This document shows positions 686 to 37,176 of a stretch of 64,000 bases of DNA, piece after piece; positions within the stretch are counted from its first letter, which is position 1; each line of letters opens with the position of its first letter. A model generated the notes under the pieces. That model worked only from the letters and a program-made list of their open reading frames with translations, ran no database searches and was not told where the DNA came from. This DNA is from Dictyostelium discoideum (Eukaryota): NCBI GenBank assembly GCA_000004695.1, contig CM000152.2, positions 4,032,001-4,096,000 of the forward strand, given 5' to 3'. The position numbers and the translations under genes are program-made.

Positions 686-1987
686 GGTTGTTATTGTGGC
701 CATACCCGAGGTAGTATCAGAAATATCTGCAGTTGTTGCAGTTGTATTATTTTTATTATCAATTTCTTGTTGTTGATTTGTATTATCTTTATTTGCTGTT
801 GTTGATGATTTCGATTTTTTAATCTTTTTTCTAGTTCCAATTTTAATTTTAGATGGTTCAGGTTCAATAATAATATTTAATTTTGGTAATTCACAAGTGA
901 ATGATTGTTTAAGATGAATTGATTTTATATGAGAATCTAAACCAGATTTTGTAAGATAAACTTTATCACAACCTTCGTGTGTACAATGAAAAGCTTTACG
1001 TTTTTCAATATCGATATGGACTTTTTTATGTTCAGATAATTTTGAAGAGGATTTAAAAACTGATGAACATTGATCACAATTGTATGTTATTGTATGACTT
1101 GTTTTACGATGTTTTTGTAATTCCAATAATGTGACAAACTTTTCTTTACAACCTGGAAACATACAAATATTGGTTGCGACACCATCATGTTTACGGGCAG
1201 CATGTTTTTTCAAATAGCTTGGATATTCGAATCTCATACCACAATCTTTACATTCATAAGGTAATTGATTTAAATGAGCGGTTGCTAAATGACGTTTTAA
1301 TTGGTTATGTTTACTGAATGATAATTGACAATTGGTTGGATCGTGGTTACATTTATATGGTTTTTCAGTATCATGTTTTGATTTTATATGAGTTTGAAGA
1401 TGATGTTTAAAAACGAATGTATTTGTACATCCTACTATTGGACATGGTATCTTTTCTTGTGGTGGAGAATGTGTCTTTTCATGGTATGACAAATGATGAG
1501 ATCTTGAGAATGATTTACCACATCCTTCAAATTTACAATGATATGGTTTTTCACCTGTATGTGTCCTTATATGATATTCCAATTTTGATGCTCTTGGAAA
1601 TACTTTACCACAATATGAACATGTTAAATCAAATACTGATATTGGTTTTCTTGGTTCTCCCTTTAATTTTCTTTTCTTTAAAATTTCTTTTAAATTTTTA
1701 GTTTCCAAATCATCACCTGAATATTCATCTAATTCTTTATTTATTTCTTCATCATCATCATTATTTCCTTGTTCTTCATCTTCATCTTCATCATCTTCTT
1801 CTTCTTCTTCGTCATTTGTTAAATTATCCTCTTCATCACTATAATCTTCATCCTCTTCTCCAATTTCAGAGTCTCCATTTTCAGATTCAATTAAATCCTC
1901 TTTTTTTTTTTTATTAAAATTATCACTATCTTTAGTTATTTGTAAATTTTCTTCGTCTCTTGTTCTTTTCCTAAGGGCTATTACCAT
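257..1987 (-). CDS. C2H2 zinc-finger protein with acidic N-terminal region, 8 tandem C2H2 fingers, a poly-Thr/Asn linker and a ninth C-terminal finger
   Basis: A single 576-aa ORF with ATG at 1985-1987 (minus strand). The C-x2-4-C-x12-H-x3-5-H pattern repeats (CSYCGKVF..HIRTH; YHCKFEGCGKSF..HEKTH; YECKDCGMRF..HAARKH; and others). The Thr run is encoded by (GTT)n at about 600-690 on the plus strand. No intron is evident. Confidence 0.7.
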
Positions 1988-2042
1988 TTTTTTTTTTTTG
2001 GTTTTTTTTTTTTTTTTTTTTTGAAAAAACGAAATTGATTAT

Positions 2043-2076
<34 letters not shown>

Positions 2077-2090
2077 GTGCTTAAAGTAAG

Positions 2091-2128
<38 letters not shown>

Positions 2129-2275
2129 ATTTTATCGTTTTTTTTGAAATTAGATTTTTTAATCCGTTGGATAATTATTTTAAAACAATAAAAATACGTG
2201 TTTATTTTAACTTTTTTTTATTTTTTATATTTTATTTTTTCAATACGAAAAATAGAAATAAACAATAATTAATTA

Positions 2276-2309
<34 letters not shown>

Positions 2310-2403
2310 TTTTTTTTTTATTAAAAAAAAATAATAAAAATAAATAATTATAATTAATTTTTAAAAAAATAAAAAAATAAATAAAAATAACAATTTAAAT
2401 ATA

Positions 2404-2766
2404 TTATTTTTCAATTGGTTTTTCATCATCTATTTTGTTTAAAAGATTAATAATTTCAATTCTAAACAATAATTGTTCATTGATTGATTTTTCCAATTTG
2501 AAAATTTTTTGTCCACAACGATTGCAAACTCTAATTTTATTATTTTCAATTACACTCCATCTCCAATATGGAGTATTATTAGTTAAACAAATTTGACAAC
2601 ATAATGGCTTTGGTTTTGGTGGTCTTCCTCTTTTTGGTTTTTCATCAATACTAAACATATGATTATGTGATAAATTTGTCATTGGTTGTGGTAATGGTGA
2701 TGTTTTTAATTTTTTAGCTCCACAATTTTTTCTTGGATTTGAACATTTTGTTTTTTGTTCAATCAT
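2404..2766 (-). CDS. Small GATA-type zinc-finger protein (120 aa) with a basic AT-hook-like KRGRPPKPKP segment
   Basis: The ORF has a true ATG at 2764-2766 (minus strand). The motif CQICLTNNTPYWRWSVIENNKIRVCNRCG resembles the GATA finger (C-x2-C...TP.WR...C-x2-C). The inter-cysteine spacing of 20 residues is longer than the canonical 17-18. Confidence 0.55.
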   Translation of the reverse strand: MIEQKTKCSNPRKNCGAKKLKTSPLPQPMTNLSHNHMFSIDEKPKRGRPPKPKPLCCQICLTNNTPYWRWSVIENNKIRVCNRCGQKIFKLEKSINEQLLFRIEIINLLNKIDDEKPIEK

Positions 2767-2857
2767 TTTCCTTTTTTTACTTGAATCCTATTTATTATTA
2801 ATTATTGATAAAAAAAAAAAAAAAAATTAATTTCAATTTTATTACTTTAAAAAAAAA

Positions 2858-2889
<32 letters not shown>

Positions 2890-3803
2890 TAAATAATTAC
2901 ACATGAATTTGAATTTGATAAAAATTTTAAATTGGTAATCATTTTATCTATAAAAATTTCAGCATTTTTAGCAACTCTATGATCCTCCTCTGACAATAAA
3001 AGGATATTTGGAGGTTCATTTAAATTTGAAACTTGATCAAAAACAAGGATATTATTATTCTTTTTTTTAAAAAAAATAAATATTAAATTAATATTCAAAA
3101 ATTTAGTTAAAAATAAAAATAAAAATAAAAATAAAGATTTATTTTTTAAAATTGTAAATATTAAAATAAAAAAATAAAAAAAAATAAAAAAAATTAAAAA
3201 TAAAATATAAAAATAGAAAAAAAAAAAAAAATTAAAATAATTAATATTTTGTAATTAAATAAATTAATTTTTAGATTAAATTAAAAGTAAAAAAAAAAAA
3301 TCTAGCCAAATTATTACCATTTGATTATAAATGTAAATTTGATTTATTTTTTATTTTTTTAAAAAAAAAATATATATATATATATATAATTGTAAATGTA
3401 ATTTTTATTTTCAATTTTTTGAATTGGTAATTTTTTAAGAATATTTTTCAATTGTTTGATGTTGAATTTATAAACACAAAAAAAAAAAAAAAAAATAATA
3501 AAAAGAAAAAATTAAATTAAAAAAAAATAAAAAATAAAAAAAAATTAAATTTTTTCCATTTGTTGATATGATTTAAAAAATTAATATAAAAAAAAAAAAA
3601 CTTACAACCAATAATTATTCCTTTTTTTTTCAAAAAAAAAATTAAATTTAATTTTTTTTTTTTTTTTTTTTTTATTGTTTGTGTTTTTTTAAGAAATGAA
3701 TTCATTTCTATCTAGATTGACCAAAAATAAACTTAATTTTATAAATTTTGCGGTTAAATCAATGGAAAATTGAATAAATGTAGGGGTATAATTGATTATA
3801 TTA

Positions 3804-3836
<33 letters not shown>

Positions 3837-4568
3837 CAATTTTTTGAAAGGCTTGTTTGTGGGCCTTTAAAATTTTTTAAAGGCCCACAACCACTGTACA
3901 GTCAGCAAATTGTGTGTGGGGATTTTTTAATTTCTTTGTCCCATTTGTACTTATAATTCCATATTTTATTGGAAATTTTTTAAAGTATTTTTATTTTTTT
4001 GTTTTTTTTATATCCATAATAAAAAAACACCAAATCTAACTTTTTTTATATAAATTTAGAATAATTAAATTAAAAAAATTATTTTTTTGCTTGATTAAAT
4101 CTAACAAAATGTTCCATATTTACTCTCTATCATACACAAAGCAAATAAACAAAAACACACACACACACAATTTTTTTTTAAGGTTGGCTATAAAAAATAT
4201 AAATAGATAAACCTATTCTTTGAATGTTTTTTAAATATTTAAAAAATTAAAATAAATATAAATTAATACATTAAAAAAAAAAAAGAATAAAATAAAAAAG
4301 CTAATAATAATATTTTTTTATTAACTCCTTTTTTCATTTTCATAAATATTTTTTTTTTTTTTTTTTTAAAGATCTGTTTCTTAAAATATTAAGACATGTG
4401 TTTAAAATTGTATATTTTTTTTTTTTTTTATTAAAAAAAAAAAGTTTTTTTTTCTGTGAAATAATTATTTATAAACCATTGTGGAAGTGATGGGTTTATT
4501 ATATTTTATTTTTTTTTTTATATTTTTTTTTTTTTTTTTTTTTTAATAAAGTTAAATTGATATTGTGT

Positions 4569-4599
<31 letters not shown>

Positions 4600-4962
4600 T
4601 TTATTTATTATAATATAATTTTAACAAACACTCTTGTTCTTATAATAACCTTTTATTTCCACAAGTGGAATCTACTCTGTGTATAATTTTAACTTATACT
4701 CTTGTTCTTATAATAACCCTTTATTTCCATATGTAGAATCTACTTTGTGTAGCCTTCCATTCTTAGGTAATCCGATCGAAACAAAAATCGATAAACTGAC
4801 AAACCATCCCTTAATTTTCTTTCCAATTTTTTTTTATAATATTTAAAAAATAAAAAAAAAATAAAAAAAAAAAAATAAAAAAAAAAAAAAAAAAGGAAAT
4901 ATATAATAAAGTATGGGATTTAGATCTAATTTTTTTAAAGTAAAATTAATAAAAAAATTATT

Positions 4963-7993: not shown

Positions 7994-10224
<2,231 letters not shown>

Positions 10225-34923: not shown

Positions 34924-35201
34924 TTTTTAAATTAAAAATTCTTTGTAAATAATTTCATAATTTTATATAATTAAAATAAATAAAAATAAAAATATAAATA
35001 ATTAGAAGTTTTATTACTTTGTTCATTAACTATAAAGTGAAAATTGGCTCTGCCTTTATAATTTATATTTTTTATAATGTTTTATTTTTTATAATGTTTT
35101 AATAAAAATATATAATTTTTAATATTATTTTAGTGTCCGATTTAATTCTTTTTTTTTTTTTTAATAACATCACTCAATTTGAGTGTGTTCTAGGAGAGTT
35201 T

Positions 35202-35256
<55 letters not shown>

Positions 35257-35349
35257 CTGGTAACTCTTATTTTTTTTATTATTATTATTATTATTATATT
35301 ATTATTATTATTAAATTATTATTATTAAATTATTATTATTATTATTATG

Positions 35350-35354
35350 GTGGT

Positions 35355-35400
<46 letters not shown>

Positions 35401-35940
35401 AGTAGTTGGTGTTATATGAGCAGTATGGTATGAAGTGTTCCGGGATGTTAATGGTCATGAGTTTCGAGTTCCAGTTGTGACTGAATTTTTCGAGTCTTCT
35501 TTTTATTGATGCGGTCCGATTGATTGACTCTCGGTTATCAGTGCATCTTAGTTCTTGACGTAGTTGTTTTTCTACTATCTTTCTTGTTCTATCCCATTCG
35601 GCATCTCTCGCTTTTTTGATTTTATGAATTATTTGGTTCTCTGTTATTATTGTAGTGTTATCGTTGAATTTTATTTGATTTCTTCTGTACCATATCGATT
35701 CCATAATGGCTCCTATCAGATTTGATGAGAATGGTGTGAGTAGTTTTCCGAGAACTTTTTCGCTCCATGGACCGTGGTAAGTGTTGTTGGAGTCTTTACA
35801 GACCTTTTGATAGATTGAGTCGATATTCTGTTTTATTGATTTGCATTCGAAGAAGATGTGCATAGACGATTCTTCTTCTTTACATGAGTGGCAATTCTCC
35901 CCATGGTGTTTTGGGCGATTTAATTCAAAATTTCGCTATT
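35350..35940 (-). mobile_element. 5'-truncated non-LTR (TRE-type, tRNA-gene-targeted) retrotransposon fragment upstream of the tRNA, with its oligo(A) tail distal to the tRNA
   Basis: The minus-strand ORF 35396-35863 encodes a LINE ORF2 C-terminal region (HIFFECKS...LIGAIMESIWYRRNQIKFND). A 3'UTR follows, then about 45 T on the plus strand (35353-35397), which is an A45 tail on the element strand. The proximal end lies a few tens of bp 5' of tRNA-Ala (35961). Its C-terminal motif is homologous to that of the downstream element (HLFIDC...LIGIIIHQLWRIICHKLFNQD). Confidence 0.5.
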
Positions 35941-35960
35941 ATTTATTTAAAATCATAAAA

Positions 35961-36033
35961 GGGGATGTAGCTCAGATGGTAGAGCGCTCGCTTAGCATGC
36001 GAGAGGTAAAGGGATCGATACCCTTCTTCTCCA
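35961..36033 (+). tRNA. tRNA-Ala (anticodon AGC)
   Basis: The sequence GGGGATGTAGCTCAGATGGTAGAGCGCTCGCTTAGCATGCGAGAGGTAAAGGGATCGATACCCTTCTTCTCCA folds as a cloverleaf: acceptor GGGGATG/CTTCTCC with the G3:U70 alanine identity pair, D-arm GCTC-AGATGGTA-GAGC, anticodon stem CTCGC/GCGAG with loop TTAGCAT (anticodon AGC), and T-arm AAGGG-ATCGATA-CCCTT. It is near-identical to metazoan tRNA-Ala-AGC through position 43. The T-loop ATCGATA and a U6:U67 mismatch are atypical, but both recur in the second tRNA-Ala at 58199-58294. Confidence 0.8.
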
Positions 36034-36109
36034 TTTTTAATAAGGCTTTTTCAAAAGATCGCAGGTTCGACTCTTATTTATTTGTAAGAAAAAATATTAC
36101 CTAGGTTTA

Positions 36110-36765
36110 ATTCTGTTTGTAATAACAGATGGACAAAAAAATCTAATTTCAATAAATAACATCAACATACCATCCATCTTCCAACATATCAACCACATAT
36201 CACATCAAAAAGGTAGAAATACACTATTCAGATTTTTCTCAAGGTCACTTCCTGGAATCAACTATGAACGTAACGTACCATGCAAAATCTGTAACAATAT
36301 AATCCGTGACCCATACACTCACCTTTTTATAGACTGTATGCAAGTAAAAGAAATAGAAAACATAATAATTTCAACATTCAACAATCTCTCATTCTTCAAG
36401 ATCAGAAATTGGGATCTCAATTCACTAAATATTAGCAAAACAAATAAAAAAGAAAGAATCTACCCAAATTTAATCGGCATAATTATACATCAACTATGGA
36501 GAATCATTTGTCACAAACTATTCAATCAAGACGAATCTAAAACTCCACCCTCATTTGATCCAACATTAATTGAAAAAGAACTAACCAACTTAATTAAAAT
36601 AGAGAAATTCATTTTAATAAAGAAGATGGAAAGGAATGAAACAATATACAAATTAAATAACAGAGACCAATTAATAATCAACTTCAACACATCATGGCAT
36701 AACCCGAACACTCCAAACCCAATTGCATTATAATAAAAAAAAAAAAAAAAAAAAAAAAAAAACAA
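36110..36765 (+). mobile_element. 5'-truncated non-LTR (TRE-type) retrotransposon 3' fragment downstream of the tRNA, ending in an oligo(A) tail
   Basis: The plus-strand ORF region ends at 36733 (CKICNNIIRDPYTHLFIDC...NLIGIIIHQLWRIICHKLFNQD...NPIAL*). It is followed immediately by about A30 (36735-36765). The proximal end is roughly 80-100 bp 3' of the tRNA, the placement reported for TRE3-class elements. The start coordinate is approximate. Confidence 0.5.
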
Positions 36766-37176
36766 GTAGTAGTAATCATAATATAACCAAAAATATCAAC
36801 ATATGACAATATAAAAATTTAAAAATTTAAAAATCTAAAAATTTAAAAATGTAATAAAATATAACAATACACGCTTTTAGGTAAAAAAAAAAAAAAAATT
36901 CTGTTTGTAATTTTATTGTTGGATCTATATAAAAATCCATTTTAAAACCTGTGGAAATTCCATAGGTATAAACTTTCTTCCAAATTAATCAACTATTGTT
37001 TGAATAGTAATACTTTTACTACTATCGAATTGTCTCATATATTTTTAAAAATAAATAAAAAATAAATAAAAAGATGTAACATTTAAATATTTTAATTTTT
37101 TAATTTCTTTTTTTTTTTTTAAAGTTTATTATTTTTTTTTTTTTTTTTATATTTTGGGAGGAAAAAAAAAAAAGAT

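Follow-up and report, generated by a model that had tools for sequence, protein, structure and literature searches.

Two 5'-truncated retroelement insertions, of the TRE5 and TRE3 types, on either side of a tRNA-Ala(AGC) gene in Dictyostelium discoideum

A 64-kb window of chromosome 3 of Dictyostelium discoideum AX4 (the whole stretch of DNA that was analysed, to whose positions all coordinates refer) contains a single tRNA gene, tRNA-Ala(AGC), which is bracketed by the 3' remnants of two retroelements. With a probability of about 0.92, these are two independent, dead-on-arrival insertions of tRNA-gene-targeted retroelements (TREs): a TRE5 element, best assigned to TRE5-B, upstream of the tRNA gene and a TRE3 element downstream of it. 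Each has its own poly(A) tail and its own target-site duplication, and the whole feature, from one distal duplication to the other, spans 35138-36911. An original prediction, made from the letters alone, had placed the feature at 35350-36765, which is too short at both ends. Its description of two 5'-truncated fragments of long interspersed nuclear elements (LINEs) of the TRE type, facing away from the tRNA gene, agrees with the homology of their second open reading frame (ORF2) and with their orientations. The proposed distribution, with the TRE5 class upstream and the TRE3 class downstream, is in accordance with published rules on distance and orientation.

The tRNA gene lies at 35961-36033 (+). 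ARAGORN, the Rfam tRNA model RF00005 (58.1 bits) and the sequence itself, which agrees with the AlaAGC primer of Spaller et al. 2017, all support the identity already given to it in the original prediction. Distances to the two elements, now fixed at the base, are 45 bp on the upstream and 90 bp on the downstream side, and the duplications measure 11 bp (CGATTTAATTC) and 13-15 bp (AATTCTGTTTGTAAT), respectively.

The upstream TRE5 element

The upstream element occupies 35149-35915 (-) and consists of the last 767 bp of a 5'-truncated TRE5. Its minus-strand frame, open from about 35938 onward, ends with a TAA stop codon at 35396-35398 and encodes ...PKHHGENCHSCKEEESSMHIFFECK...NLIGAIMESIWYRR..., with a C-x2-C...H-x4-C motif (NCHSC...HIFFEC) and the sequence NLIGAIMESIW. 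The ORF2 C-terminus itself comprises 172 codons plus the stop (35396-35914, -) and is defined by homology to P0031 and P0039. From PKHH to the stop, the 172 residues agree with the C-terminus of P0031 (1056 aa) at 100% identity and with P0039 (1144 aa) at 91%. In P0039, an endonuclease-like region, a reverse transcriptase and a CCHC motif follow each other in that order; the reverse transcriptase matches RVT_1 with an E-value of 1e-36, and the N-terminal 260 aa match Exo_endo_phos_2 (E 2e-4) and Exo_endo_phos (E 1e-3), both short of the Pfam cut-offs. Matches to zf-RVT are weak (E 4e-4). Because P0039 combines a strong RVT_1 match with a weak endonuclease-like N-terminus, the upstream family is recognised as ORF2 of a non-LTR element (an element without long terminal repeats, LTRs). 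The window ORF belongs to a cluster at 90% identity with 39 members, among them ORF2s of 982-1144 aa. Pfam searches with the two window fragments alone gave nothing above threshold. A word-indexed protein search overlooked the long and full-length relatives, and its no-match outcomes are not counted as evidence.

Protein homology and DNA homology of the upstream fragment both begin at 35914. This sets the element's 5' end at 35914/35915, with 45 bp between that and the first base of the tRNA (35961). The position was compared with several other copies: L001 and L002 contain copies of the upstream family in other strains, and L009 stems from the D. discoideum assembly GCA_054883475.1. In a DNA alignment with L009 (3725-4553), the window copy shows about 97% identity from 35914 to the tail, and the sequences are unrelated outside both ends; the aligned L009 3' untranslated region (UTR) closes with a 46-nt block, ...CTCCTAGAACACACTCAAATTGAGTGATGTTATT, plus a short poly(A). 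In the same alignment, the base at 35915 (g) fits neither the element nor the duplication. The element is enclosed by an exact 11-bp direct repeat, CGATTTAATTC. Its tRNA-distal copy (35138-35148) abuts the tail and its tRNA-proximal copy (35916-35926) abuts the end of homology; within the window the sequence is found at these two junctions only, with a chance expectation of 0.09.

The 3' UTR of the upstream element is 233 bp long and composed of A runs, an (AAT)n microsatellite and a 46-nt block. An internal A41 run (35357-35397, -) begins within the ORF2 stop codon; the L009 copy has A31 in its place and then the same 3' UTR onward. The inner part (35209-35356, -) contains an A48 run (T48 on the plus strand, 35209-35256) and the (TAA)n/(TTA)n microsatellite. 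It is followed towards the element's end by a 3'-terminal block with the hairpin CACTCA-AAT-TGAGTG (35163-35208, -), which is near-identical in L001, L002 and L009, and by the true poly(A) tail, an A14 run (T14 on the plus strand, 35149-35162, -) placed after the terminal ...GTGATGTTATT as in these three copies. The order of stop codon, A run, (AAT)n, A run, 44-46-nt terminal block and tail is thus kept in three independent copies (L001, L002 and L009), in which the similarity between copies stops directly past the last A run, while the lengths of the A runs differ from copy to copy. As three copies share this layout and one duplication encloses all of it, the T48 run and the microsatellite belong to the upstream element, and the upstream side consists of one element, with no third insertion.

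Placement and orientation are those of a TRE5. The published distance of TRE5 elements upstream of tRNA genes is 34-82 bp (PMC5911963, PMC5006619), and the element's 5' end points towards the tRNA gene's 5' end, opposite to its transcription (PMC3159450). Copies of the same or of sister families lie 43-50 bp from the tRNA 5' end, in opposite orientation, at four further loci, upstream of tRNA-Glu (L002), tRNA-Leu (L006), tRNA-Phe (L008) and tRNA-Lys (L009). L006 and L007 come from the D. discoideum strain GCA_054859385.1, with ACTFIR locus tags, and L008 from the D. discoideum assembly GCA_054859355.1. The parts of ORF2, the distance, the orientation and the combination of poly(A) tail and duplication all point to the same class.

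The downstream TRE3 element

The downstream element extends over 36124-36896 (+) and represents the last 773 bp of a 5'-truncated element of the TRE3 type. Its plus-strand frame begins at 36125, stays open as far as the TAA at 36731-36733 and encodes ...CKICNNIIRDPYTHLFIDC...NLIGIIIHQLWRI..., including CKIC...HLFIDC and NLIGIIIHQLW; the Cys/His motif and the NLIG...W sequence, which the original prediction had noticed in both fragments, can be read directly from both frames. This ORF2 C-terminus of 203 codons plus stop (36124-36733, +) has the homologues P0008-P0011 and P0054, with 50-65% identity, and homology begins at codon 36125, one base after the duplication. The nearest ORF2 fragments are those of D. 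dimigraforme, D. citrinum and Tieghemostelium lacteum. By exhaustive HMMER search, they are joined by the D. discoideum protein P0054 (ACTFIT_004581), which is 65% identical over the whole fragment and matches RVT_1 with an E-value of 2e-14; P0063 contains Exo_endo_phos plus RVT_1.

The 3' UTR (36735-36882, +) starts with an internal A28 run (36735-36762), followed by CAAGTAGTAGTAA, an AT-rich stretch and the terminal ...TTTTAGGT, a layout that is also found in L003, L004 and L005. These loci, from D. citrinum and D. dimigraforme, show a stop codon, AGTAGTA plus a long A run, about 110 nt, ...AGGT, a tail and a duplication of their own. The true poly(A) tail of the window element is an A14 run (36883-36896, +), or A16 if two A's common with the duplication are included, and the distal duplication comes directly after it. 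The duplication AATTCTGTTTGTAAT is an exact 15-bp direct repeat with a tRNA-proximal copy at 36109-36123 and a distal copy at 36897-36911; its length is given as 13-15 bp because the leading AA may belong to the tail. A 14-mer of this sequence occurs only at the two junctions, against a chance expectation of 0.00.

The position of the downstream element can be related to the promoter elements of the tRNA gene. The internal B box, GGATCGATAC, lies at 36012-36021 (+) and a T5 terminator at 36034-36038 (+). A motif scan places an external B box (ex-B), GGTTCGACTC, at 36064-36073 (+), 31 bp past the tRNA; the longer sequence ATCGCAGGTTCGACTC at 36058-36073 deviates from the ex-B consensus GTCnnnnGTTCRAnYC (PMC3159450) at the first position only. 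External B boxes are present at most D. discoideum tRNA genes (PMC5911963). Counted from the end of the tRNA (36033), the downstream element's 5' end (36124) comes after 90 bp, and counted from ex-B after 50 bp; published distances for TRE3 are 40-150 bp, or 14-305 bp depending on the subfamily (PMC5911963, PMC5006619). Relatives of the TRE3 type in L003, L004 and L009 are placed and oriented alike near tRNA genes. The element resembles the TRE3 family (TRE3-A/Tdd-3, -B, -C and -D) in its location past ex-B, its orientation parallel to the tRNA gene, its ORF2 C-terminus with a CCHC motif and reverse transcriptase-bearing relatives, and its tail and 13-15-bp duplication.

It differs from the closest D. 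discoideum representative, P0054, to which overall identity is 65% even though the first 43 residues are identical. At 60-65% amino acid identity, the window fragment differs from the subfamily that P0054 and the L009 copy represent and does not belong to it. When P0054 is compared with 36125-36733, the 100% identity of the first 43 residues drops to about 55% thereafter, and the last 27 residues of P0054 nearly match the D. citrinum copy in L003 (96%). This pattern looks like a mosaic that could have arisen by recombination or template switching between TRE3 subfamilies. An alignment of TRE3-type ORF2 C-termini gives a weak Pfam Forkhead match in four of its five members (best E 5e-4); although consistent across members, the match is probably spurious.

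Alternative readings, subfamily and mode of insertion

The two fragments are distant relatives of each other. Pairwise BLASTP between them is not significant, and when BLASTN is run without filtering to compare the elements with the window, low-complexity matches dominate. A profile-profile comparison of both families (hhalign) gives a probability of 97.3% and an E-value of 2.3e-11 over 220 columns, covering the GR..L.R..L..LP stretch, the CCHC motif and NLIG..W, and when the TRE3 fragment is compared with another TRE5-B copy by tblastn, the E-value is 8e-5. These comparisons, which uphold the proposed homology of the two C-termini, point to the remote kinship that is expected for TRE5 and TRE3. 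The chance that both fragments derive from one LTR or DIRS element placed around, or split by, the tRNA gene is next to nil. Their proximity and common Cys/His motif, and nothing further, would favour such an origin, whereas each has its own tail and a different duplication, their homology is visible at the profile level only, and no long direct or inverted terminal repeats are present in 35000-37000. Moreover, full-length relatives show the endonuclease-like and reverse transcriptase order of non-LTR elements, with no integrase, tyrosine recombinase or LTRs. The claim that both are similar to LINE ORF2, rather than to LTR or DIRS elements, is therefore sustained.

Little speaks for the open frames being host genes or chance ORFs, a reading that is hardly credible. 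The AX4 RefSeq collection does list a 155-aa product of the upstream ORF (DDB_G0281107), and the downstream frame is open over 203 codons. However, the start methionine of the annotated protein falls within the CCHC motif, the protein matches the final part of a many-copy ORF2 of 1056 aa without a difference, and its ORF is accompanied by a retroelement 3' UTR, a tail and a target-site duplication; the downstream ORF is absent from the protein collection, and its relatives are reverse transcriptase-bearing ORF2s beside tRNA genes. A further possibility, that of three insertions with the T41 and A28 runs as tails and the T48 run as the trace of a third, older element, is very unlikely. It is the one favoured in the original prediction, which had described a T45 run at 35353-35397 as the oligo(A) tail of the upstream element, an A30 run at 36735-36765 as the end of the downstream element and a second T45 run at 35213-35258 as the potential tail of an older insertion. 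All three runs exist, as T41 (35357-35397), A28 (36735-36762) and T48 (35209-35256), as does the (TTA)n sequence between the first and the last of them. Yet T41 lies inside the 3' UTR, the downstream duplication follows only after a further 134 bp that end in AGGT plus A(n), as in the relatives, and T48 and the microsatellite are part of the layout conserved in three independent copies. Long homopolymer runs directly past both stop codons could suggest separate tails, and there are tRNA genes beside which TREs have inserted in tandem (L008, L009; PMC5006619). In these real tandems, however, a copy of the duplication flanks every unit, unlike at the window locus, where the sole direct repeat bracketing the upstream element encloses the whole 767 bp and none flanks either sub-part. 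The window has a G+C content of only 21% and contains 41 A/T runs of at least 20 nt; because such runs are common in it, they carry no weight alone. In these elements, the long A runs just past the ORF2 stop are internal features of the 3' UTR and not tails.

Within the reading of a TRE5 upstream and a TRE3 downstream, the upstream element is best assigned to TRE5-B, by elimination and by published structural criteria. TRE5-B lacks a 3' B-module and a C-module (PMC3159450) and is represented by a full-length copy of 5971 bp, while TRE5-C is known from an 879-bp consensus only (Spaller et al. 2016, PMC5006619). Since the window element has no B- or C-module and its family includes long and full-length ORF2s, TRE5-B would be the appropriate name. 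With TRE5-B it shares the location 45 bp upstream, the 5' end directed to the tRNA 5' end, relatives with endonuclease-like, reverse transcriptase and CCHC regions, and a tail with duplication, the difference being that the window copy retains the last 767 bp only. TRE5-A (DRE) has the same target window, orientation and insertion mechanism and a related ORF2 C-terminus. It ends, however, in a duplicated B-module and a 134-bp C-module (...GCGTTATCCAATTC), whereas the window element has oligo(A)/(AAT)n tracts and a different terminal hairpin block (...GAGTGATGTTATT) at its end.

A TRE5-A or TRE5-C origin of the upstream fragment is unlikely, albeit not negligible. TRE5-A is the commonest family, with 102 copies (PMC5006619), the window ORF belongs to a large 90% cluster, and the oligo(A) tracts and terminal hairpin of the 3' UTR recall the described C-module. 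On the other hand, alignment reveals neither the B- nor the C-module, as seen in L009, at the 3' end of the window element, and the ORF2 N-terminus of the L009 element with A-B-ORF1 structure is unlike that of P0031 and P0039. The related element in L008 has 5' and 3' ends without a common duplicated module. As for TRE5-C, its C-module, 78% identical to that of TRE5-A, forms the 3' end, and the family is known only as short 5'-truncated copies (PMC3159450, PMC5006619); the window element does not have this type of 3' end, and the ORF2s of its family reach 982 to 1144 aa. TRE5-C had been the first assignment, on the basis of the missing B-module, a 3' end like that of an A/B/C-like element in L007 and short annotated fragments only. 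It was dropped in view of the 982-1144-aa ORF2s in the same 90% cluster and of L009, which displays real TRE5-A modules and a TRE5-C end. The published TRE5-A primers Rep-190 and Rep-109Q, compared with the fetched loci, gave a 12-nt core match in L007 only, which is uninformative.

Some points weigh against the preferred reading of a TRE5-B and a TRE3 insertion. The 3' boundary of the TRE3 rests mainly on the duplication, as the 3' ends in other species align only loosely. The name TRE5-B depends on elimination and on published structural criteria. In addition, L008 contains the only near-full-length relative among the fetched loci, which has about 80% ORF2 identity to the AX4-type copies and, at about 5.3 kb, is shorter than the 5971 bp published for TRE5-B.

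L009 contains four tandem TRE5 insertions (690-4960) upstream of one tRNA-Lys(UUU), each followed by the duplication TTGATCGTTATAT; a copy of the TRE3 type lies downstream of the same tRNA gene. Insertion thus struck the same few bases repeatedly. The first insertion is a TRE5-A.2 with A, A and A' modules, a B-module in which the 444-aa ORF1 begins, an ORF2 that is deleted, and terminal B- and C-modules. Its last bases, ...GCAACTAATAATTGCGTTATCCAATTC, have T15, C26, A35 and C38 when counted from the 3' end, the positions that Siol et al. 2011 mutated in the C-module of TRE5-A.1. The second insertion has a variant C-module end (3590-3700), as expected for TRE5-C; the third is the relative of the window element, devoid of B- and C-module; and the fourth is a TRE5-A piece made up of B- and C-module sequence only. 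In L008 (5118-13865), the near-full-length relative lies beside tRNA-Phe and follows a TRE5-A B-C insertion, and there are three copies of the 11-mer TTCATTACAAA. Its ORF1 start is unlike that of the L009 TRE5-A.2, its 5' UTR resembles the A/B modules of TRE5-A, and about 2 kb of unrelated inserted sequence interrupts its ORF2. The ACTFIR strain (L006, L007) contains a TRE5-type ORF2 family (P0012, P0013) that is about 50% identical to the AX4-type TRE5-B end, and L007 contains a non-coding element of about 720 bp (9055-9775) with tandem repeats and its own terminal hairpin; neither of them matched a named AX4 family.

The sequence shows what the two elements are, where they end, how they are oriented and spaced, and their tails and duplications. 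How they reached their sites can be proposed in outline, with targeting drawn from the literature; the targeting proteins and the order of events are what we infer. On the tRNA gene, the elements would recognise the transcription complex of RNA polymerase III. In the case of TRE5-A, ORF1 binds TFIIIB, and the B box and TFIIIC are required; TRE3 would take its position from the B box, internal or external (PMC5911963, PMC5006619, PMC3159450). The ORF2 endonuclease would then nick the target, and the nick would prime reverse transcription on the poly(A) tail (target-primed reverse transcription). An early stop of reverse transcription may have left the last 767 bp of the TRE5 and the last 773 bp of the TRE3, and staggered cleavage of the second strand would account for the 11-bp and 13-15-bp duplications. 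Judged by sequence features, the poly(A) tails, the arbitrary 5' truncation and the duplications of 11-15 bp bear the signature of this process. Yeast Ty3 and Ty1 likewise use tRNA genes as safe landing sites via the polymerase III machinery, but these are LTR elements that rely on integrase and insert at other distances from the tRNA gene.

The terminal stem-loop, annotation and the surrounding gap

The 3'-terminal block of the upstream element (35163-35208) is predicted to form a hairpin of -9.2 kcal/mol (z = -3.3), with the stem-loop AACA-CACTCA-AAT-TGAGTG-A-TGTT at the element's end. L001 shows a compensatory change from U-A to C-G, with a C·A intermediate between copies. RNAalifold was applied to six 3' ends of several families: the window (35163-35200, -), L001 (3461-3505), L002 (3766-3813), L006 (7545-7590), L007 (9716-9760) and L005 (about 3950-3990). 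It predicts eight pairs, six of which carry double changes, in an alignment of six sequences only. Conservation of the stem-loop by compensatory changes across TRE5-type families that lack a C-module is therefore suggestive, not proven. By analogy, the stem-loop could be a 3' recognition signal for reverse transcriptase and the counterpart of the essential stem-loop in the TRE5-A C-module, the A runs and (AAT)n being by-products of slippage; this proposal is tentative, with odds a little short of even. No description of such a 3' signal for TRE5-B was met in the TRE literature examined. In L005, a D. dimigraforme locus without a tRNA gene according to ARAGORN, the TRE3-type tail is directly followed by a short sequence (about 3930-4000) that closes with a hairpin like the terminal one of TRE5 and a poly(A) run (...CTAGAACATGGCATCAAATTGATGACCAAGGTTATT-A(n)).

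Targeting of D. discoideum tRNA genes by TRE5 and TRE3 elements has been described since 1989 and catalogued genome-wide. At least one TRE is carried by 61% of these genes, and 13% are targeted by TRE5 and TRE3 both (Spaller et al. 2016, PMC5006619). The meeting of both classes at one tRNA gene, to which the original prediction had attached special meaning, is thus an ordinary and already known state in this genome. The gain lies in the annotation of the tRNA-Ala(AGC) locus, for which precise boundaries, tails and duplications are now available; beyond correct annotation, the significance is little. One warning concerns the RefSeq 'hypothetical protein' DDB_G0281107, which is a retroelement ORF2 remnant: this entry (XP_640822.1, 155 aa, 35396-35863, -) corresponds to the last 155 codons of the truncated TRE5 ORF2. 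Many further AX4 proteins annotated as 'hypothetical' or 'reverse transcriptase zinc-binding domain' share its 90% cluster.

Exact-product look-up of the neighbouring ORFs of 600 aa and 895 aa found no exact product on record. An ornithine decarboxylase gene with three exons lies at 38741-37177 (-), and its spliced 461-aa product is an exact match to XP_640823.1 (AX4 group IV decarboxylase). Together with DDB_G0281107, this match identifies the window as part of AX4 chromosome 3. Both insertions are located within a gap of about 2.25 kb that separates the 3' ends of two convergent genes and that would have measured about 0.7 kb prior to both insertions.

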